Source: Candidatus Aminicenantes bacterium (GTDB lineage: Bacteria > Acidobacteriota > Aminicenantia > Aminicenantales > JAFGAV01). From it: a stretch of DNA of 64,000 nucleotides. The stretch's first letter is position 1, and each line of letters begins with the position of its first letter. The stretch covers positions 588,744 through 652,743 of the forward strand of contig OY970122.1 in assembly GCA_963705895.1 (NCBI GenBank). The letters are read 5' to 3'. Under the pieces are notes generated by a model. It saw only the letters and a program-made list of their open reading frames with translations. It searched no databases and was not told the origin of the DNA. Both the position numbers and the translations under genes were made by a program. Of this stretch, positions 5,785 to 42,178 are shown in pieces.

Positions 5785-6936
5785 ATGGGGCGAACATCGG
5801 AGGCTTATGCCGTGGACACTGAGATTCGCATCGATAAAGTCAGAACCCGAAGAGAGTTCAAGCTCTACCGCGATTTTCCCCGCGCCGTCTATAAGAATGA
5901 CTCGAACTGGGTCCCGCCTCTGAACATGGATTTCAAGGAAAAGCTGGACAGGAAAAAGAATCCCTTCTTCGAGCACGCCGACCGCGAGCTGTTCCTGGCC
6001 TATCGCGGCAATCGCGTCGTGGGCCGCGTCCTGGGCATCGTCGATGACAACCACAACGCGTTTCATGACGAAAAGGTCGTTTTCTTCGGACAGTACGAGA
6101 GCTTCAACGAGCCGGACGTGACCAGGGCTCTGCTCCACGCGGTCGCGGCCTGGGGCCGCGACAAGGGCATGACCATCCTCCGGGGGCCGGTCAATATCTC
6201 CCTGAACGACGAATGCGCCATGCTCATCGAGGGCTTCGATTCCCCTCCCGCGGTCATGATGCCGTACAACCCCGAGTATTACAACGACCTCATGGGTCAG
6301 TTCGGCCTGGTCAAGGCCAAGGACCTTCTGGCTTTCATAATGCACCGTGACCACAAGACGGTCGCCGACGTCAAGACCATCGTCGACAAGTTCCAGCGCG
6401 AGAGCAAGATCACCGTCCGCCCATTCACCATGAAGGAATGGAAGCGGGAAGCGGAGATCATCAAGTTCCTCTACAACAACGCCTGGGAACGGAACTGGGG
6501 CTTCGTCCCCTGGACGGAGCGCGAGATGGACCATATGGTCAAAACTCTCCGGCCCCTGGGCGACGCGGACATCATCGGCATCGCCGAGGATGAAGGCAAG
6601 CCCATCGGCTTCGGGTTCGCTTTCCCCAACTACAACGAAGTCCTGATCAAGATGAACGGCCGACTGACGCCCTTGTCCATGCTCAAGTTTCTTTGGCTGC
6701 GGAAACGAATCAAGGGGGTCCGCATCCTGGTCTTCGGCGTCCTTAAGCCCTACCGCCTGACCGGGGTGAGTTACTTGCTCTTTTCCTTTCTCCAACAGAA
6801 CATCCTGCGCAAGCGATACCAATGGGCCGAGACGTCCTGGCAGCTCGAGGACAATGAAGCCGTCAACAAGTTCGTGATGTCGGTCGGCGGCAAGGTCTAT
6901 AAAAAGTACAGGATCTATGAGAAGAAGCTGGCCTGA
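5785..6936 (+). CDS. GNAT-fold N-acyltransferase-like protein (hypothetical, about 380 aa)
   Basis: Long ORF with coding-like composition, divergent from the Lon-like gene. Central region (…VVFFGQYESFNEPDVTRALLHAVAAWGRDKGMTILRGPVNISLNDECAMLIEGF...) looks like an acyl-CoA N-acyltransferase fold; not identified more precisely. Confidence 0.5.
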   Translation: MGRTSEAYAVDTEIRIDKVRTRREFKLYRDFPRAVYKNDSNWVPPLNMDFKEKLDRKKNPFFEHADRELFLAYRGNRVVGRVLGIVDDNHNAFHDEKVVFFGQYESFNEPDVTRALLHAVAAWGRDKGMTILRGPVNISLNDECAMLIEGFDSPPAVMMPYNPEYYNDLMGQFGLVKAKDLLAFIMHRDHKTVADVKTIVDKFQRESKITVRPFTMKEWKREAEIIKFLYNNAWERNWGFVPWTEREMDHMVKTLRPLGDADIIGIAEDEGKPIGFGFAFPNYNEVLIKMNGRLTPLSMLKFLWLRKRIKGVRILVFGVLKPYRLTGVSYLLFSFLQQNILRKRYQWAETSWQLEDNEAVNKFVMSVGGKVYKKYRIYEKKLA

Positions 6937-8069: not shown

Positions 8070-9528
8070 CCAGGAAGAGGCGCGCCGCGAGAAGCTGGCC
8101 AAGCTGGCGGAGCTCGGGGTCGATATCTTTCCGGTCAAGGTCGACCGGACACACTCGGTCTCCGACGTCGTTCGCGAGTTCTCCGCTCTGACCAGGGAGG
8201 AGCTTGAGACGCGGGCGGCGAGCGTGGCCGTTCCCGGACGGATCATGTCCATCCGGCGCATGGGCCGGGCCACCTTTTTCCACATCTCGGACGGGCGAGT
8301 CCGCCTCCAGGCCTACATCCGCGCCGACGTCGCCGGAACCAAGGCCTACGAGATTTTCAGCCTGTTCGACATCGGCGATCTGACGGCCGTCAAGGGTAAG
8401 CTGTTCAAAACCAAGACCGGCGAGCTGACGGTCCTGGTCGAGGGTCTGACCTTCCTGGGCAAGAGCCTCCACCCCCTGCCGGAGAAGTGGCATGGCCTGC
8501 AGGACATCGAGCTCCGCGTCCGGAAGAGATATCTCGACCTGATCATGAACCCCGAGGTGGGCGAGGTCTTCCGCCTGCGGAGCGCCGTCATCGCCCGCGT
8601 CCGCAAGTTCTTCGACGCCCGGGGCTACATGGAGGTCGAGACGCCCATGATGCAGGCCTTGCCCGGCGGCGCCCTGGCCCGGCCGTTCGAAACGTTCCAC
8701 AATGCTCTCGGGCTCGAGCTCTTCCTCCGCATCGCCCCCGAGCTGTACCTCAAGCGGCTCGTGGTGGGAGGGTTCGAGAAGGTCTATGAGATCAACCGCA
8801 ACTTCCGGAACGAGGGCATCGACGCCGAGCACAACCCGGAATTCACCATGCTCGAGTTTTACGAGGCCTACGCCGATTACGGCGACATGATGAACATGAC
8901 CGAAGAGCTGTTCCTCGAGCTGTCGACGACCCTCCTCGGCAAGGACGAGGTCCGCTTCGGGGAGGAAACGATCTCCTTCAAGCGGCCCTGGAAACGGATC
9001 AAGTTCATGGAGGCCGTCAGCACGTTCAGCGGTTTGGCTCCCAGCCGGTTTGCCGACCGACAAGGAGTCGTGGAATACGCCGGGACCCTGACTCCGGATA
9101 AGCCTCCTCTGACCTACGGCAAGGCCCTGGACATCATCTTCGACAAGCACGTCAAGCACAACCTCGTCCAGCCGACATTCGTCACGAACCCGCCCATAGA
9201 AGTCTCTCCCTTGGCCAAGCCGGCCCGGGACAACCCGGATGAGGCCGAGCGGTTCGAGCTCATAGTGGCCGGGATGGAGCTGGCCAACGCCTTCAGCGAG
9301 CTCTCCGACCCGGTCGACCAGCGGCGCCGGTTCGAACAGCAGGCCGAGGAAAAGAAACGGGGGGTTACCGAGGCGCACCCCATCGACACGGACTACATCG
9401 AGGCCCTGGAATACGGATTGCCGCCCACCGGCGGGGAGGGGATCGGCATCGACCGGCTGGTCATGCTTTTGACGAACCGGCGCTCGATCCGCGACGTCAT
9501 CCTCTTCCCCCTGCTTCGGCCGCGCTGA
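7999..9528 (+). CDS. lysS: lysine--tRNA ligase (class II)
   Basis: Start taken at the in-frame ATG (MKKEQSPKPP...) within the 7822..9528 ORF; upstream of it the frame overlaps nusB. Anticodon-binding and class II motifs: ...ELETRAASVAVPGRIMSIRRMGRATFFHISDG..., ...FRNEGIDAEHNPEFTMLEFYEAYADY..., ...GIGIDRLVMLLT.... Confidence 0.9.
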   Translation: MKKEQSPKPPAPPAAGPGESSLSDQEEARREKLAKLAELGVDIFPVKVDRTHSVSDVVREFSALTREELETRAASVAVPGRIMSIRRMGRATFFHISDGRVRLQAYIRADVAGTKAYEIFSLFDIGDLTAVKGKLFKTKTGELTVLVEGLTFLGKSLHPLPEKWHGLQDIELRVRKRYLDLIMNPEVGEVFRLRSAVIARVRKFFDARGYMEVETPMMQALPGGALARPFETFHNALGLELFLRIAPELYLKRLVVGGFEKVYEINRNFRNEGIDAEHNPEFTMLEFYEAYADYGDMMNMTEELFLELSTTLLGKDEVRFGEETISFKRPWKRIKFMEAVSTFSGLAPSRFADRQGVVEYAGTLTPDKPPLTYGKALDIIFDKHVKHNLVQPTFVTNPPIEVSPLAKPARDNPDEAERFELIVAGMELANAFSELSDPVDQRRRFEQQAEEKKRGVTEAHPIDTDYIEALEYGLPPTGGEGIGIDRLVMLLTNRRSIRDVILFPLLRPR

Positions 9529-9529
9529 G

Positions 9530-10747
9530 ATGAACTACGAGCTCTTTATCGCCAAGCGCTACCTGACGGCCAAACGCAAGCAGGCCTTTGTTTCAGTCAT
9601 CACCTTCATCTCCGTCCTGGGCATCACCATCGGGGTCATGGCCCTCATCATCGCTCTGGGCCTGATCACCGGCTTTCAGGAGGACGTCCAAAACAAGATC
9701 CTCGGCGCCACATCGCACATCATGGTCTCGGACCTGACGGGGGAGGGGTTGCGCGATTACGGCCCTCTCCAGGAGAAGATCGAGCGCTTGCCCGGCGTCA
9801 TATCGGTGACCCCGGTCGCCTACAACACCGTGCTTCTCTCCGGCTTCGCTAAGAGCTCCGGGGCCGTCCTCAAGGGGATCGACTTCAGCCGGGAGAAGAA
9901 GCAGGCGCCCTGGCTCGAGAAGCTCGACGCCGGCCGCCTGCCGGATGAAGCTTCCCGGGAGGGAATTCTCATCGGCAGTCAGCTGGCGGCGCAGGTGGGT
10001 GCCGGCGTGGGCGACGCGGTGACGGTCTACACGGCTTCCTCGAGGCTTTCGCCCCTGGGTCCTTTGCCCAAGCTCCGAAAATTCATCGTCACGGGGATAT
10101 TCTCCACGGGCCTTTACGAATTTGATGCTTCGACGGCCCTGGTCACCCTGAGAACGGCTCAGAAGTTCTTCAAGCTGGAGAGCCGCATCAGCTACCTCGA
10201 GGTCATGCTCCGGGACATCTTCCAGGCCGACCGACTCGGGCGGGAGATTCAGAATCTCGCCCCGGCTGCGGTCTACATCACGACCTGGATGGAGCTCAAC
10301 AAGCCGCTCTTCTCCGCGCTCAAGCTCGAGAAGAACATCATTTTTCTGACCATCACCCTGATCGTCCTCGTGGCGGCCCTCAACATCATCGCGACGCTCA
10401 TCCTCATGGTTATGGAAAAGACCCGGGACATCGGGATCCTCATCGCCCTGGGCGCCACGTCCCGCAATATCCGCAAGGTCTTCTTCCTCCAGGGAGCGAT
10501 CATCGGCCTGCTGGGCACGGGGGCGGGACTGGCCCTCGGCCTGGGATGGTGCGCCCTGGCCAACACTTTCAAGCTCATCCGTGTTCCGGTGGCCATCTAT
10601 CAGATCTCGTATGTTCCCTTCCATATCAAACCGGCCGACCTCCTGGCTATCATCGGCCTGTCACTCCTCATCAGCCTGGGCTCCACGCTGTTCCCTTCAC
10701 GGCGGGCGGCGCGCGTGGACCCGGTGACGGCGTTGAAGTATGAATAG
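9530..10747 (+). CDS. lolC: lipoprotein-releasing system permease LolC/LolE (FtsX family)
   Basis: MNYELFIAKRYLTAKRKQAFVSVITFISVLGITIGVMALII... with a periplasmic domain and C-terminal FtsX TM helices; immediately followed by lolD. Confidence 0.8.
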   Translation: MNYELFIAKRYLTAKRKQAFVSVITFISVLGITIGVMALIIALGLITGFQEDVQNKILGATSHIMVSDLTGEGLRDYGPLQEKIERLPGVISVTPVAYNTVLLSGFAKSSGAVLKGIDFSREKKQAPWLEKLDAGRLPDEASREGILIGSQLAAQVGAGVGDAVTVYTASSRLSPLGPLPKLRKFIVTGIFSTGLYEFDASTALVTLRTAQKFFKLESRISYLEVMLRDIFQADRLGREIQNLAPAAVYITTWMELNKPLFSALKLEKNIIFLTITLIVLVAALNIIATLILMVMEKTRDIGILIALGATSRNIRKVFFLQGAIIGLLGTGAGLALGLGWCALANTFKLIRVPVAIYQISYVPFHIKPADLLAIIGLSLLISLGSTLFPSRRAARVDPVTALKYE

Positions 10748-28628: not shown

Positions 28629-28657
28629 TTGACACTCTAACCCTGTTAGGCTACAAT
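28629..28657 (+). promoter_or_regulatory. consensus sigma70 promoter P1 (TTGACA - 17 nt - TACAAT) in AT-rich patch upstream of the SpoIID-like gene
   Basis: TTGACA 28629-28634, TACAAT 28652-28657, exact consensus hexamers with 17-nt spacer. Confidence 0.35.
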
Positions 28658-36392: not shown

Positions 36393-37147
36393 GCGTCCGA
36401 GTGCGGGACCTGTCCTATCCGCGTGGAGATTTCCTCCTCCATATCGACGCCCTGCAATTCGAATCCGGCCGTCTGACATCGATCGTGGGGCCGAACGGGG
36501 CGGGGAAGACCACGCTCCTCAAATGCCTGGCCGGGCTGTTCCCCGTAGCCAAGAACCACATCTTCATTGAGGACCGGGACATCGCTACCCTGCGGGAGGC
36601 TGAACGGGCCAGGCTCATCGGCTACGTTCCGCAAGAGCATAACCCCGTCTTCAACTACTCGGTCCTGGATTTCGTGCTCATGGGCCGGGCCGCCTATCTG
36701 CCCCTGTTCTCTTTGCCCTCGGCCGAGGATGAACGGATGGCGGAAGAATCCCTGGCTTTTGTCGGCCTGGAGAGTTTCGCTTCCCGGCCGTATTTCGACC
36801 TCAGCAGCGGCGAGCGCCGGCTCATCCTGATCGCCCGGTCCCTGGCCCAGCGGGCCAAGATCCTCCTGCTTGACGAGCCGACCTCATTCCTGGACCCCAA
36901 GCACGAGATGGAGATCCTGGAGCTCAGCCGAAAGCTGGCTGTGGAACGCGGTCAGACGGTCCTCCTGACCCTGCACAATTTAGACATGGCGGTCAAGTAC
37001 TCCGACAGCCTGGTGTTCATGAAGGCCGGGGGAGTGTTCGCTTCGGGCCTGCCGCAGGACATTTTGAGCGACTCGCTCCTAGAATCCGTCTATGACGTCA
37101 GGATGCGGATCGTCGATTACGAAGGCCGGAAACTCATCCTGCGCTAA
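36389..37147 (+). CDS. ABC transporter ATP-binding protein (FecE/BtuD-like)
   Basis: GTG start overlapping the permease stop (GTGA), GGAGGG RBS; Walker A GPNGAGKTTLLKCLAG, signature LSSGERRLILIARSL, Walker B ILLLDEPTSFLD. Confidence 0.85.
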   Translation: MSVRVRDLSYPRGDFLLHIDALQFESGRLTSIVGPNGAGKTTLLKCLAGLFPVAKNHIFIEDRDIATLREAERARLIGYVPQEHNPVFNYSVLDFVLMGRAAYLPLFSLPSAEDERMAEESLAFVGLESFASRPYFDLSSGERRLILIARSLAQRAKILLLDEPTSFLDPKHEMEILELSRKLAVERGQTVLLTLHNLDMAVKYSDSLVFMKAGGVFASGLPQDILSDSLLESVYDVRMRIVDYEGRKLILR

Positions 37148-37307
37148 GGGAGCTGCCGGGCGTCCATCATCGTAGAGGGTTTCCGGGTTCAACCGGATTC
37201 AGCGATCACTCACGCCGGAATTAACGTCCGATTGGCGCAGGATTGCAGGCAGGGCAACGTCGAGACTCGCACTCTGACCTGCTCAACTCCAACCTGTCTG
37301 CGAACAA

Positions 37308-37343
37308 ATTGACTTTCAATGAAAAAGTAATTACAGTTATTAC
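37308..37343 (+). promoter_or_regulatory. putative sigma70-type promoter with palindromic operator upstream of the mazEF-fusion gene
   Basis: TTGACT - 17 nt - TACAGT, only about 7 nt before the ATG (leaderless-like). Overlapping palindrome GTAATTAC AG TT ATTAC, typical of TA autoregulation operators. Confidence 0.35.
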
Positions 37344-37997
37344 ATGAAATCGACTGAGCTCAAAGTCTCTCGTATCGGAAACTCCCGCGGGGTCCGGCTT
37401 CCTGCGGCGTTGTTAAAACGATATCGCATCGGAGCTGCTGTCCTCATGGAGGAGACGAGCGAGGGTATTTTCCTGCGGCCCGTCGGCCCTGTGGTGGAGA
37501 AGCTTTCATGGGAAGATACGGTCCGCGAGATGGCGGCCGGCCGCGAAGACTGGGGCGATTGGGATGCGGTGGACGCGGACGGATTGGAAAATATTCTGTG
37601 GGCAACCGAAGGCGCCGGGAGAATAACGGAAAAGAAAGCCTGGTATCGGTCGGCTCGGCGAATCAAGCAAGAGACCGTTCTGCGTTATGAGATTCGATGG
37701 GTTTCACTGAATCCGACCCAGGGTGCGGAAATGGGGAAGAAACGTCCAGCGGTCATCGTCAGTCTGGACGCGCTCAATGAAAGATTACAGACCGTGACAA
37801 TCTGCCCTCTGACCAGCCGGTTACATCCCTCCTGGCGCTCCAGGTTGCAGGTCCGATGCAATCGACAAGAGGCCGAAATCGCAGTGGACCAGATAAGAAC
37901 TATCGCCAAATCTCGGCTGGGAGCCAAAATCGCCGCGTTGACAGAAGACGAAGCCTCCGCGTTGAGGCGGATTATCACCGAAATGTATGGCGAGTGA
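37344..37997 (+). CDS. fused MazE-like antitoxin (SpoVT/AbrB) and MazF/PemK-like endoribonuclease toxin in a single ORF
   Basis: N-terminal MKSTELKVSRIGNSRGVRLPAALLKRYRIGAAVLMEETSEGIFLRPV... with acidic EDWGDWDAVDADGLENILW tail (MazE/PemI-like). C-terminal ...RYEIRWVSLNPTQGAEMGKKRPAVIVSLDALNERLQTVTICPLTS... (MazF/PemK-like). No stop or canonical internal start between the two halves. Confidence 0.65.
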   Translation: MKSTELKVSRIGNSRGVRLPAALLKRYRIGAAVLMEETSEGIFLRPVGPVVEKLSWEDTVREMAAGREDWGDWDAVDADGLENILWATEGAGRITEKKAWYRSARRIKQETVLRYEIRWVSLNPTQGAEMGKKRPAVIVSLDALNERLQTVTICPLTSRLHPSWRSRLQVRCNRQEAEIAVDQIRTIAKSRLGAKIAALTEDEASALRRIITEMYGE

Positions 37998-38015
37998 CCC
38001 GAAGCCCCGTTCAAA

Positions 38016-38043
38016 ATCTTGACATCTTTACAAACAGAGTGAT
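38016..38043 (+). promoter_or_regulatory. near-consensus sigma70 promoter (TTGACA - 16 nt - TGnGATAAT) upstream of the integrase remnant
   Basis: TTGACA at 38016-38021 and extended -10 TGATAAT at 38036-38043; a TTG start with GGGGGA RBS follows at 38072. Confidence 0.3.
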
Positions 38044-38071
38044 AATCTCCATCTATATTAACGGGGGATAT

Positions 38072-38206
38072 TTGAAGACAAGACAGGAAGTAGTTTTCGT
38101 CGCGGAACAAAAAGCCGCTTATTCCGCCCGGCCTCAAAGGTTGCTCGATCGACTTCGCGAGGCGTTCCGCATCCGACATTATAGCCGCCGTACGGAAGAG
38201 ACCTAA
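38072..38206 (+). pseudogene. tyrosine recombinase / integrase N-terminal fragment (IntI/XerD-like), truncated after about 44 codons
   Basis: (M)KTRQEVVFVAEQKAAYSARPQRLLDRLREAFRIRHYSRRTEET* matches the conserved integrase N-terminus (IntI1: ...[24 protein letters not shown]...). The rest of the recombinase is absent in all frames downstream. Confidence 0.4.
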
Positions 38207-38326
38207 TGACCGATCGGGCACTCGTTTCACAAGCGTCTAATTCATCACATGAAGTCGCATCCGGGTTGTTATATGGATCTATGTAAACATTGTTAGCTCA
38301 ACGTAAACATTAGAGGGAGACTCTCA

Positions 38327-39490
38327 ATGACAAAGAAGACTACGCCAATCGGAAGTGAAACAGCGGCAAAGAGGGCATACCTGAAGCAATCAGATGTGCC
38401 TTCCGCTTCCTTAGAAGAAGCACTTCGAATGCCAGAGGCAATCCTCGATCATTATGCAGGAAAGGCGACTACACCATTACAGGTTGCCAAAGCCTTGAAC
38501 GTGGATCCAAAAGGCTCACAGATTCGTGTTCTTTCGGGGGCCGCAATGGCTTTTGGCCTCATCGAAGGGGGTGCGCAAGCAACTAACATTTCTGTGACCG
38601 ATCTTGCACGACGAATTCTTCGCCCTAAAGAGGAGAATGATGATCTGGCTGCAAAACGAGAGGCAGTTTTGAAACCCAGAGTTTTCGGTGATTTTCTTCG
38701 CCAATATGACGGTAATGCCTTCCCCCGTCGAGAGATCGCATTGAATGTACTCGAAGAAATGGGAGTACCACGTGAGAAGACAGAGGAGGTTCTTGAACGA
38801 ATTGATGCTAGTGCACGCTCCGTAGGCTTTATCGCGGAGATTAGGGGGAAAAATTATGTCACTCTCCAAGGAGCCGCGACTTCCATTACCGCAGATGTAT
38901 CAAGTTCCGAGATAAGTCCAGAACCCGAGCAAGAGAAACTAACCGCACCGGAGATCAAGAGATTGACGATCCCCCCTCCTATCGTACAGCCGAAAGGAGC
39001 TGCACTTACTGCTGCTATCGCAGACGACCAGAGACGCCGCCGGGTGTTCATTACGCACGGTAAAAACAGAGACTTGGTAGAGCCAATTAAAAAACTCTTA
39101 GAGTATGGTGAGCTAGAGCCAGTGGTTTCTGTCGAGAAGTCATCTGTATCCAAACCCGTCCCTGAAAAAGTTCTGGATGACATGAGGGGCTGTGGAGCGG
39201 CAATTATCCACGTAGAGGTGGAGCAAATGATTGTCGACAGGGAGGGGAATGAACATGTTTTATTAAATCCCAATGTCCTAATTGAAATAGGTGCCGCCAT
39301 GGCTTTCTATGGTCGGCGGTTTATTTTATTAGTCCGGGAAGGGGTGAAACTGCCATCGAATCTTCAGGGCCTTTTTGAGGTACGGTACGGTGGCGATACC
39401 TTGGATGCAACTGCTACTATTAAGCTACTCGAAGCTATTAAAGATATCAAGAACTATGATCTCCCCACACAACCAGAGGTTGAGAGCTAA
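38327..39490 (+). CDS. two-domain protein: unknown N-terminal domain + C-terminal TIR-like nucleotide-binding domain (PF10137 / CAP12-like); candidate defence effector
   Basis: AGGGAG RBS. C-terminus RRVFITHGKNRDLVEPIKKLLEYGELEPVV...NPNVLIEIGAAMAFYGRRFILLVREGVKLPSNLQGLFEVRY matches the VFIVHG...LGLEPI...RQNVIFELGYFIGKLGR.RV..L...GVE.PSD..G pattern of the TIR-like family. Markedly lower GC than flanking genes. Confidence 0.55.
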   Translation: MTKKTTPIGSETAAKRAYLKQSDVPSASLEEALRMPEAILDHYAGKATTPLQVAKALNVDPKGSQIRVLSGAAMAFGLIEGGAQATNISVTDLARRILRPKEENDDLAAKREAVLKPRVFGDFLRQYDGNAFPRREIALNVLEEMGVPREKTEEVLERIDASARSVGFIAEIRGKNYVTLQGAATSITADVSSSEISPEPEQEKLTAPEIKRLTIPPPIVQPKGAALTAAIADDQRRRRVFITHGKNRDLVEPIKKLLEYGELEPVVSVEKSSVSKPVPEKVLDDMRGCGAAIIHVEVEQMIVDREGNEHVLLNPNVLIEIGAAMAFYGRRFILLVREGVKLPSNLQGLFEVRYGGDTLDATATIKLLEAIKDIKNYDLPTQPEVES

Positions 39491-39500
39491 CTAATGAATC

Positions 39501-39526
39501 CAGCGGACGGCTTTCAGCCTCCGCTG
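39501..39526 (+). terminator. stem-loop between the TIR-like gene and the next ORF (possible attenuator/terminator)
   Basis: CAGCGGACGGC-TTTCA-GCCTCCGCTG imperfect inverted repeat 10 nt after the stop; no T-tract; followed by a strong RBS (GAGGGAGGAGG) for the next gene. Confidence 0.25.
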
Positions 39527-39557
39527 TTCCGTACGTAATGAGGGAGGAGGCCTTTGC

Positions 39558-40094
39558 ATGAGGCTATGTGCTTTTGGTGGCGTGGTTCTTGCTATGGTCG
39601 CGCTATCGGGGCAAGCGATGGAATCTCCCGCCCAGAGTCCGACGCCTGCTGAGATCAAGGCTGTGGACGCGTTCATAAAAACCCAAGAGCGACTCCGGAG
39701 CACGCAGTACGTCTCGGATAACTTGCTTGAGTTTCGCGAGGGGCGCCAGTATGCGTTTGACGAAGCCGGCGGGAGCGGCAAGACGATACTCGCTGTGCGT
39801 TATACTTTGGAGGAGGGCAACAACTGGACTCTATTCCTCGCAGCCTTTTCAAGGCCGACAATGAAGTGTCAAGCCCACGCACGGGTGGGTGGCAAGGGCT
39901 ATCGCAACGTTGATATTAGCGGGGTTAAGGGCGATATGATCTATTTGAAGATCGAATTGTACTCAACCTACGACGCTCTCTGTTGTCCCAGCGTCCCTGG
40001 CTCAACAATCTACGAACTGACCGACGATTCGCTCGTCGAAAAGGAACTTCGGGTCGACTGCGAGGGTTGGAGGCCGCCAGAGAGGCGAAGATGA
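39558..40094 (+). CDS. hypothetical secreted protein (signal peptide, 4 Cys)
   Basis: MRLCAFGGVVLAMVALSGQA signal peptide; strong RBS; low GC; no recognisable domain. Confidence 0.45.
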   Translation: MRLCAFGGVVLAMVALSGQAMESPAQSPTPAEIKAVDAFIKTQERLRSTQYVSDNLLEFREGRQYAFDEAGGSGKTILAVRYTLEEGNNWTLFLAAFSRPTMKCQAHARVGGKGYRNVDISGVKGDMIYLKIELYSTYDALCCPSVPGSTIYELTDDSLVEKELRVDCEGWRPPERRR

Positions 40095-40266
40095 ACTTTG
40101 GCTCGTCAGGCACTTGTCAAATGCTATGGAAATATTCGAATATTATAAGAAATAATAACCCAGCAAGGATAAAATGACCGGCTAACCAGGCGCAGTATCT
40201 GACCGCAAATCCACGGTGCACCATTGCGCAAGGTGAGCGTGCCGCCGACCGGACAAGAGGAATATC

Positions 40267-41133
40267 ATGATCGACCCAGGGTTGAGCGGAAAAAGCATGT
40301 TAGTGACGGGCGCCAATAACCCGAGAGGGATCGGTGCGGCGACGGGAAGGGCATTCGCCAGGTTGGGGTGTAAGGTTTTTCTCCATTTCTTCCGAGAGCC
40401 TGCTCCGGCCGGCAAACCGCCTGATATTCCCGGCGAGGAGCTATATCACGCGCTGAATGCCCGATCGGCTGAAGATGTTGTTGAGGAAATCAGAAAAGCC
40501 GGAGGGACGGCGCACAGTTGGGAGGCGGACCTTGCGGATCCAAACACCATTCCCCAACTGCTCGACCAAGCCGAACATGCCGTCGGACCCGTCGAAGTTC
40601 TTGTGAACAACGCAGCGCACTGCGTCTGGGATACGTTCCTCCCGAAGGCAGGCAACGTTTATGAAGAGGACTCCGCTTATCAAGCGCTGCCGCTGACGCC
40701 ATCGAGCCACGATGCGCACTTTGCCATCAACAGCCGGGTGCCGGCCCTGCTTATAGCCGAATTTGCCCGGCGTCGCATTGCCTCCGGGGCTGGATGGGGA
40801 CGGATCATCAACATCAGTACCGACGCGTCTTCTTCGCACCCCGGGGCCATCTCGTATGGCGCAAGCAAACACGCGCTCGAGTCTTACTCGCGAGCTGCTG
40901 CGTTGGAGCTGGCACGTTATGGAATCACGGTCAACGTGATCGCGCCGGGCGCCATTCAGACCGGTTGGATTTCGCCGGCGCTTGAGGCACAGTTAGCCAA
41001 ACGTTTTCCTCTCGGTCGCATTGGTCTCCCGGACGATATCGCAGATGTCGTGGTCTTCCTCGCATCAGAGCAAGCGCGCTGGGTCACCGGCCAAACACTT
41101 TATGTTGGGGGCGGCAATGTCATGCCGCTCTAG
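40267..41133 (+). CDS. short-chain dehydrogenase/reductase (SDR) family oxidoreductase
   Basis: TGANNPRGIGAATGRAFARLG (TGxxxGIG Rossmann), NNAA motif VLVNNAAH, catalytic Y..K (ISYGASKHALE), ...IAPGAIQT.... Confidence 0.8.
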   Translation: MIDPGLSGKSMLVTGANNPRGIGAATGRAFARLGCKVFLHFFREPAPAGKPPDIPGEELYHALNARSAEDVVEEIRKAGGTAHSWEADLADPNTIPQLLDQAEHAVGPVEVLVNNAAHCVWDTFLPKAGNVYEEDSAYQALPLTPSSHDAHFAINSRVPALLIAEFARRRIASGAGWGRIINISTDASSSHPGAISYGASKHALESYSRAAALELARYGITVNVIAPGAIQTGWISPALEAQLAKRFPLGRIGLPDDIADVVVFLASEQARWVTGQTLYVGGGNVMPL

Positions 41134-41187
41134 CGCTCGAGGGTTGGCTAGGGGATAGCTGAACTTGACGGCTGCACATATCACATC

Positions 41188-41718
41188 ATGGCTGAAGTTT
41201 GTCGTTATTTGAAAAACATGAACTTGGAATTCACGACAGTGCTTAATCAAGAACGAGGCACTATCGCGGCACTGCTGAAGCGGGCCTACGCCGATTTGGT
41301 TAAGAGCAATCCATTGCTATGGGAACCTGAGCAGGCGAAATGGGATCAATACGATCATGATGTATTTGCGCAGCCGCAGACTATCGGGGCCTGCATATTT
41401 CTTACCTGGCTGGATGGCCGGATAGCCGGGTTTGGATCGTGGGACCCGCGACAGAGGCCTCGCTTCGGCATCGTCGGACACAACTGTATATTGCCGGAGT
41501 ATAGAGGAAAGGGTTTGGGCAAACTGCAAATTCGTGAAATCCTTCGACGCTTTCAAGAAGTGGCGATTAAGACGGCTAAAGCTTCTACCAATGACAGCCC
41601 CTTCTTTGTTCCCGCTCAGCGGATGTATGAGGCGTGCGGATTCCGAGAAATCCGACGTATTCCCTGGCATCGCGATCCAGGACAGAGGATAATCGAATAC
41701 GAGAAGGAAATCGGCTAA
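41188..41718 (+). CDS. GNAT-family N-acetyltransferase
   Basis: ...FGIVGHNCILPEYRGKGLGKLQIREILRRF... acetyl-CoA binding motif (R/Q-x-x-G-x-G/A); alternative start at 41218. Confidence 0.7.
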   Translation: MAEVCRYLKNMNLEFTTVLNQERGTIAALLKRAYADLVKSNPLLWEPEQAKWDQYDHDVFAQPQTIGACIFLTWLDGRIAGFGSWDPRQRPRFGIVGHNCILPEYRGKGLGKLQIREILRRFQEVAIKTAKASTNDSPFFVPAQRMYEACGFREIRRIPWHRDPGQRIIEYEKEIG

Positions 41719-41791
41719 AAAAGAGCTCCAGCGGACATGGACGAGCCGCGCCGCTGAGCTATGACGTTAGATCGCAGGGGAGGTGGGGAGC

Positions 41792-42178
41792 ATGTCAGAC
41801 GAATCAGCTGTGAGAGAAGTCATCGCCAAGATCGCCGCCGCGTGGCGCCTGAAGCAATTCGACGGGCTTGATGAGTGCTTCCATGAAGACGCTGTTATTG
41901 TTGGGCCGGGCTACGTCGAGGTTGGCCGCGGCAGAGCGAAGTGCGCCGAAAGCTACAGAGAGTTCGCAACCAATGCGGCGGTTCTGTCGTATCACGAGTC
42001 TGGGCATACGCTTCGAATATGGGAGACAACGGCAGTTCACACCTTTGCCTGGGAAATGACATACCAACGCGACCAAGGGCCGAAGCATGAGACAGGCACG
42101 GATCAGCTCGTGTTCCAGCTCAACTCAGCCGGTTGGCAGCTCGTGTGGCGTTATATGTATTTCGAACCATCGAGCTGA
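41792..42178 (+). CDS. NTF2/SnoaL-like fold protein (DUF4440-like), hypothetical
   Basis: GGAGGTGGGGA RBS then MSDESAVREVIAKIAAAWRLKQFDGLDECFHEDAVIVGPG... typical of the SnoaL-like/NTF2 superfamily. Confidence 0.55.
   Translation: MSDESAVREVIAKIAAAWRLKQFDGLDECFHEDAVIVGPGYVEVGRGRAKCAESYREFATNAAVLSYHESGHTLRIWETTAVHTFAWEMTYQRDQGPKHETGTDQLVFQLNSAGWQLVWRYMYFEPSS

Follow-up and report, generated by a model that had tools for sequence, protein, structure and literature searches.

Probable remains of a 'reverse' chromosomal integron platform, with a truncated integrase gene and a predicted attI site, at the head of a low-GC gene island

The segment at 38.01–38.30 kb of the window (the whole 64-kb stretch of DNA analyzed here) very probably represents the decayed remains of the platform of a 'reverse' chromosomal integron, in which the integrase gene, intI, points the same way as the cassettes. 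As far as can be read from its predicted sites, the locus is a CALIN that has kept its attI along with a fossil of the intI N-terminus. Genomic fossils of this kind are ordinary and known; the layout of its relatives is unusual. An assembly artefact of this record can be discounted, because L001 (Logan ERR10755944), a contig that was assembled separately, matches 36487–41987 with 100% identity. The platform and its left flank comprise the following features:

37344..37997, + strand: MazE-MazF fusion, a single open reading frame of 217 aa (Pfam PemK_toxin, E 3e-24; MazE_antitoxin, E 1e-3)
38009..38018, + strand: GTTCAAAATC, forming the left border of the conserved module (relatives are homologous in DNA from 38012–38019 on)
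38019..38046, + strand: predicted intI promoter, Pint (-35 TTGACA, 16-nt spacer, -10 GATAAT; 11/12 consensus positions)
38055..38067, + strand: ancestral start codon, now ATA (38055–38057), and a G-run (38063–38067) with a 1-nt deletion, from the alignment of relatives
38072..38206, + strand: intI 5' remnant, a 44-codon stub open reading frame including its TAA stop (83–84% DNA identity to full-length intI)
38204..38208, + strand: deletion junction TAATG, at which the TAA stop was created (alignment to L047)
38206..38298, + strand: predicted attI, consisting of a conserved spacer, an 18-bp imperfect palindrome (38269–38286) and AACATTG|TTAGCT, with the crossover at 38292/38293 (alignment to relatives)
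38303..38311, + strand: second copy of GTAAACATT, ten bases into cassette 1 and within its 5' untranslated part

Integrase remnant, promoter and attI

Scans of genome and metagenome collections yielded 71 related loci. Full-length members among them (for example L002, L008 and L047) are integron integrases, which score 481–487 bits against the TIGR02249 cutoff of 265 and carry the IntI-specific segment ALDRKYPNAPxxWxWQWVFP. Window positions 38013–38208 are 83–84% identical in DNA sequence to these full-length intI loci, and residues 1–52 of the L008 IntI align to 38048–38203 with 77% protein identity (tblastn, E 1e-20). In addition, stub residues 24–44 (LLDRLREAFRIRHYSRRTEET) match positions 1–21 of the 85 positions of PF13495 (Phage_int_SAM_4) with 14.9 bits and an E value of 0.037; the shortness of the match keeps the score under the 27-bit gathering threshold, about a quarter of the domain is present, and the domain is truncated. 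This match, returned by the HMM comparison of the stub with integrase N-termini, and the identity to the L008 IntI support the sequence-only reading that the stub is the N-terminus of an IntI-type tyrosine recombinase. Of the double label 'IntI/XerD-type' given there, the IntI part stands and the XerD part has to be dropped, because the closest full-length relatives pass TIGR02249.

The stub had no match in NCBIfam, a word-indexed protein search with its 44 residues found nothing, and a PDB sequence search returned noise only. HMMER, run exhaustively against 1.84 billion representatives, returned 30 matches, the best ten of which are short proteins sharing MLAGGYLQTRQEVVFVxEQKAAYxxRPPKLLDRLREALRSRHYSRRTEQTY; past this shared N-terminus, these ten diverge at different points or jump to C-terminal integrase motifs. 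TIGR02249 is defined by a tyrosine-recombinase catalytic domain with an IntI-specific extra segment and by a whole-protein score above the curated cutoff, and the stub falls outside the family. The stub derives from an integron integrase gene but is not an IntI itself, because the window encodes only residues equivalent to ~1–45 while the full-length relatives pass TIGR02249.

The hexamers TTGACA (38019–38024) and GATAAT (38041–38046) form the σ70-like promoter that had been noticed in the letters alone; it is present as described, faces the TIR-like gene downstream and is the sole match of 11/12 quality that a promoter scan returned between 36.5 and 40.5 kb. We attach significance to Pint because it is conserved in relatives, and not because of its consensus match: the exact combination of TTGACA, a 16-nt spacer and GATAAT recurs in 28 of 28 non-redundant related modules, which had themselves been chosen by the promoter pattern TTGA[CT]A, 14–18 nt, [GT]GATAAT. 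We thus assign 38019–38046 as the predicted conserved promoter of intI, apparently intact in the window. Through the deletion described below it has come to lie ~280 nt from the start codon of the TIR-like gene, and no terminator is predicted between the two. The near-consensus Pint probably still fires, and it is plausible that it now acts as the cassette promoter of the TIR-like gene.

Downstream of the stub, window positions 38206–38294 are 78–82% identical to the regions following intI in L017, L047 and L032, and they also align after intI in L033 and L049. In all relatives the region after intI closes with an 18-bp palindrome and then ...ATTG|TTA. Up to ...TAAACATTGTT the sequence is invariant, and beyond this point all loci diverge, with the divergence starting directly past GTT(A/C/G)G. 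Examples of the site read TTATACAGACTGTATAA-TCATTGTTA, or TTATATGGATCCATCTAA-ACATTGTTA in the sub-clade of the window; the window itself reads TTATATGGATCTATGTAAACATTG|TTAGCT at 38269–38298. An attI is recognized as conserved sequence by intI that ends at G|TT and is followed by cassette-specific sequence, and the window appears to show exactly this succession; we assign 38206–38298 as a predicted attI with a G|TT crossover, bearing the signature expected of such a site. Across sub-clades, four attI sequence variants occur, with the 18-bp palindrome followed by ...ATTGTT or ...ATATGTT (examples at L008 2496, L015 844, L033 990 and L023 705).

The nonamer GTAAACATT occurs exactly twice in the 64-kb window, at 38283–38291 and 38303–38311. 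The two copies are present where the sequence-only reading had placed them, but they differ in nature: the first makes up the conserved right arm of attI, which relatives have as (C/A)TAAACATT, and the second lies in cassette-specific sequence and has no counterpart in any relative. An origin by tandem duplication was not supported by Tandem Repeats Finder, which reported nothing at the two copies. Since they are spaced 20 bp apart (two helical turns), the copies might instead constitute an operator, bound by the N-terminal half of the TIR-like protein in an autoregulatory loop. The copies are exact 9-mers 16–44 nt upstream of the ATG, and the N-terminal ~190 residues of the protein match no family. 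However, the first copy belongs to attI in relatives with unrelated first cassettes and must therefore predate the TIR-like cassette; close 9-nt direct repeats (within ~30 nt) are not rare, the window containing 27 such pairs; and a DNA-binding domain in the TIR-like protein is conjecture. We consider the operator improbable, and we treat the second copy as a product of chance or of a small local duplication, not distinguishable from chance.

The cassette island and its attC sites

The cassette features to which the predicted attI leads are as follows:

38327..39490, + strand: TIR-like protein, predicted first cassette gene (C-terminal PF10137 domain, Pfam E 9e-18)
39485..39541, + strand: predicted attC 1, degenerate, with R' GTAATGA instead of GTTRRRY (model R1, 19.7 bits, E 0.013 over the whole window; marginal alone, R1 E-values being rough after a shortened calibration)
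41713..41772, + strand: predicted attC 2, after the GNAT gene, with R'' GGCTAAA (not ...AAC) and R' GTTAGAT (R1, 28.9 bits, E 6e-5, equally rough; best in the window)

The stub region lies at the start of a low-GC tract (49–56% vs 60–63% elsewhere) that extends from ~37.2 to 42.7 kb and, according to the list of open reading frames and Pfam, is full of small genes, all on the + strand. Their order is MazE-MazF fusion, stub, TIR-like (PF10137), a 178-aa protein, SDR, GNAT, SnoaL/DUF4440 and DUF6790; family searches of the tract genes returned no match for the 178-aa protein. In the TIR-like protein, the PADLOC PDC-S35 and PycTIR effector models match only the C-terminal TIR part, and the N-terminal ~190 residues (38327–38900) belong to no Pfam, NCBIfam or PADLOC family. 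The 64-kb window contains no tRNA genes, so the tract is not a tRNA-targeted island, and an Rfam search of 36.8–43.2 kb found no RNA family. GC content also dips to 49–53% at 22–23 kb, 28–29 kb, 45–46 kb and 50–53 kb, which may reflect further acquired segments. A 59-nt hairpin (37127–37185) with perfectly complementary ends (CGGAAAC...GTTTCCG), situated at the left edge of the island, overlaps the stop codon of an ABC-transporter ATPase gene; it has no match to the attC model.

This model, R1, is a covariance model built from 17 attC sites of related loci only, with no window sequence in it. The seed sites were collected from the relatives by a scan for AAC...GTT hairpins, a scan that is too unspecific in the window itself. 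In the seed alignment, both partners vary in 15 of 22 pairs and 77% of cells are paired, and the observed covariation score was higher than that of every one of 500 shuffles; five pairs (columns 10–14 with 61–65) are out of register and mostly unpaired, which somewhat reduces sensitivity. Applied to the related loci, R1 gave 126 attC matches, almost all on the intI strand. Run unfiltered over both strands of the window (128 kb), it gave two matches with E<1 and no other. Both are situated at gene 3' ends in the low-GC island, directly after the TIR-like and GNAT genes and 2.2 kb apart.

We read the TIR-like gene as the first integron cassette, with its own predicted, degenerate attC. The mutated R'/R'' boxes of the two sites suggest an array that may be drifting, and these two, both degenerate, are the only attC sites detectable. 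Three genes (178-aa, SDR and GNAT) lie between them (39542–41712) with no supported attC in between. More generally, searches at the p178/SDR, SDR/GNAT and SnoaL/DUF6790 boundaries, at the island ends and upstream of mazEF supported no attC, so part of the island may not be cassette-derived. A short palindrome after the SDR gene (41128–41153, CTCTAGCG...GCTAGGG; 9.5 bits, minus strand) could be a collapsed attC, which we do not claim. Far from the island, an isolated palindrome at 28635–28651 consists of R''/R' boxes only (CTCTAAC-3 nt-GTTAGGC; 10.4 bits, E 2.8) and is probably due to chance.

Ordinary terminator hairpins might produce attC-like matches, and the locus would then be a generic horizontally acquired island beside an integrase fossil. 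Indeed, the central stems (CAGCGGAC...CCGCTG) are rich in GC and form hairpins at the 3' ends of genes, the z-scores obtained when the intergenic regions were folded as single strands are unremarkable, and there are two sites only. However, the matches extend across all 61 positions of the model, taking in the extra-helical positions as well as the boxes R'' CTAAC / R' GTTAG; no others reach E<1 on either strand, and both have the orientation that attI predicts. Moreover, they closely resemble bona fide attC sites in arrays beside intact relatives, for example at L015 1300–1357. An explanation by terminators is very unlikely in the light of these properties, and we retain the assignment of both sites as degenerate attC.

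Loss of intI

The stub open reading frame runs over 44 codons from a TTG at 38072 to a TAA at 38204–38206, and its end could be mapped to the base against L047 and L017. In pairwise DNA alignment, window 38140–38208 corresponds to L047 1037–1105, comprising the intI codons ...RRTEETYC, while window 38206–38294 corresponds to L047 2074–2162, a stretch of spacer starting 89 nt past the intI stop codon. Relative to L047, ~968 bp are missing, and the flanks overlap by 2–3 nt (TG/ATG). The TAA stop is composed of the TA of the Tyr-45 codon and an A of the spacer; codon 45 is now joined to a point 89 nt upstream of the attI crossover. The suspicion that this point marks a junction of mobile DNA is correct, but cargo insertion displacing the C-terminus did not take place here; what happened is an internal deletion of ~0.97 kb in an integron platform.

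The 5' end of the gene has decayed as well. Relatives start with ATG TTA ACG GGx GGx TAT (MLTGGY), where the window reads ATATTAACGGGGG-ATAT, and their ATG (MLTGGYLQTR...) is located six codons upstream of the TTG in the window. Given the ATA and the 1-nt deletion in the window, the 'TTG start' and the 'G-rich RBS' are therefore former Leu and Gly-Gly codons: the two elements exist as described from the letters, but they are former internal codons and not translation signals, GGGGGA having encoded Gly-Gly. A pseudogene that continues in frame past the stops was considered, as tblastn alignments reached IntI residue 75 (...KRLIHHMKSHPG resembling ...KRFIHFHNLRHP). It was ruled out, because 38206–38294 is the spacer found after intI of L017 and L047 (78–82% DNA identity); the resemblance is coincidental.

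Based on these comparisons, we conclude that the ancestral locus consisted of Pint, intI (~345 codons), a ~170-nt spacer including attI, and then the cassettes. An illegitimate deletion of ~0.97 kb at 2–3 nt of microhomology removed intI from codon 46 to its end together with the first ~89 nt of the spacer; the start codon changed from ATG to ATA, and a 1-nt deletion shifted the frame. The promoter is still intact, 45 codons survive without function, and of the attI region the final 89 nt are left, as far as G|TT (38292/38293). With such lesions the locus is predicted to be unable to make an integrase. In that case the array would stay frozen as long as no other locus of the genome provides an IntI, and the stub peptide presumably has no function.

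One could argue, on the contrary, that the stub has been retained for a function, as a leader peptide or upstream open reading frame or as a regulatory element of the downstream cassette, since many related loci have independently kept the promoter and ~20–60 codons while losing the body of intI. However, the related loci were sampled with the 5' end as query, so retention of this end is an ascertainment effect. In addition, deletion end-points vary between loci, the peptides diverge immediately past each junction, and the window has both lost the ancestral start codon and undergone a frameshift, which together leave a retained function little likelihood. Least likely of all is a phage/XerD-type integrase split by insertion of the TIR-like gene and its neighbors, with its C-terminal part further away: the stub does match the generic SAM-like N-terminal domain PF13495 and is followed by a low-GC island, but tblastn with three IntI queries detected no C-terminal fragment and no other IntI-like segment in the whole 64 kb (which confirms the earlier remark that the rest of the recombinase is missing), the DNA right after the stub is homologous to the spacer and attI located past the intI stop codon in intact relatives, as expected for an internal deletion, and these relatives are IntI proteins (TIGR02249), not phage or Xer integrases.

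Known integrons and the platforms of related loci

A complete integron has a functional intI adjoining attI and at least one attC, whereas what the window has of intI is a remnant that has lost its start codon, is frameshifted and lacks 0.97 kb. The locus instead holds what characterizes a CALIN or degenerate integron, namely two or more attC sites (R''-L''...L'-R' hairpins) that point the same way and lie no more than a few kb apart, and no functional intI. Stub, attI, the two attC sites and every gene of the island share the + strand, which is the reverse, or inverted, orientation.

The attI boxes of relatives read TTATACGG / TTATATGG / CCATATAA. The class 1 integron platform comprises intI1, the promoter Pc and attI1, which has a core site and direct repeats DR1/DR2; intI1 is divergent from the cassettes, and Pc lies inside intI1. 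Similar to attI1, the sites described here have an inverted core and an upstream direct-repeat-like box and end at G|TTRRRY. Unlike class 1, the clade of the window has a single promoter upstream of intI that points into the array, and its attI sites are not known to have sequence similarity to attI1.

Closer counterparts are the reverse chromosomal integrons ('inverted integrase group') of Treponema denticola, Chlorobium phaeobacteroides and Blastopirellula marina (PMC6557892, PMC3607928, PMC4889954). As in these, intI, attI and attC of the window are on one strand and the cassettes are transcribed in the intI direction; the cassettes are small, unrelated and mostly single genes in a low-GC tract, and a toxin-antitoxin gene is associated with the array. 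Unlike them, the window has an intI cut to 45 codons and two degenerate attC sites left. Judged by gene orientation, the clade shares its reverse layout with Treponema, Chlorobium and Blastopirellula; the inverted-integrase group is reported to be paraphyletic (Cury et al., PMC4889954).

A CALIN is a cluster of attC sites lacking an integron integrase, and loss of intI has been proposed as its origin (Cury et al. 2016, PMC4889954). The window resembles these elements in having two attC sites and no functional intI nearby. Recognizable intI pseudogenes have been reported near only 15 of 279 CALIN, in a screen based on the C-terminal domain with >50% profile coverage (PMC4889954); because that screen uses C-terminal profiles, an N-terminal stub of 45 codons would be invisible to it.

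The non-redundant modules with the promoter of the window comprise 3 full-length, 6–10 internally deleted and 14–16 stub versions. The attI is kept in ~23 of 27 decayed modules, although it is outside the search query. At L005 5941–6243, an in-frame 'mini-IntI' of 100 aa has the N-terminal ~45 residues fused to the last 52; it adjoins a 733-aa helicase-like open reading frame in a deltaproteobacterial MAG.

In the window, the integrase module follows directly on the MazE-MazF fusion. This fusion has a counterpart (63% identity over residues 1–217, full length) right before full-length intI in L014/L015 (L015 5245–5895; L014 2–529), and mazEF and intI are therefore conserved neighbors. In pairwise DNA alignment, homology with relatives sets in abruptly at 38012–38019, at the -35 box. 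In eight other contexts, an attC whose R' box reads GTTRGGYCC ends 2 nt before the same TTGACA of the module:

L022: attC at 2359–2376
L023: attC at 104–175
L025: two attC, at 704–803 and 2406–2517
L050: two attC, at 5890–5961 and 8694–8765
L012 (second module, L012b): attC at 10241–10298
L030: attC at 556–652

Going by these contexts, GTTCAAAATC in the window is possibly the relic of an attC R' box. With an attC at the left and attI at the right, the module is therefore bounded on both sides by crossover points, like a cassette. Moreover, several contigs contain two promoter-intI modules in one co-oriented attC array: L012 (at 5962 and 10301), L015 (672 and 5968), L025/L026 (805 and 2520), L050 (5964 and 8768) and L057 (190 and 2398). 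Usually one or both of the two are reduced to a stub, as in L015, which combines a stub with a full-length intI. Retention of attI, attC sites abutting TTGACA and two modules per array are not explained by ascertainment.

Either the platform moves like a cassette, or cassettes also accumulate upstream of the platform. As a tentative proposal, which we hold to be possible though not likely, the whole platform (Pint, intI and attI) in this clade might behave as a gene cassette within arrays. The ordinary attI × attC reaction would then place a circular [attI-Pint-intI] unit in an attC, giving an integrase-less array a new platform, and surplus integrase copies would later decay by deletion. If this were true, the stub of the window would be one spent platform, whose attI and promoter could serve for docking and expression with an integrase acting in trans. 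A limited literature search found no description of such an arrangement. The family pattern, in which most integrases are deleted, promoter and attI are retained, attC sites abut the promoter and one array holds several platforms, is not established and may deserve study.

For the window itself, the promoter, the integrase stub and the repeats become one fully explained structure, and the island at 38.3–42.7 kb can be re-labelled as an integron cassette array with a TIR-like, defense-type gene as its first cassette. Chromosomal integrons have been reported to store anti-phage genes (bioRxiv 10.1101/2024.07.02.601686), which the TIR-like cassette 1 fits. The locus shows directly how a CALIN-type element arises from a complete integron, and it provides a base-resolved example of a complete integron turning into an integrase-less array.
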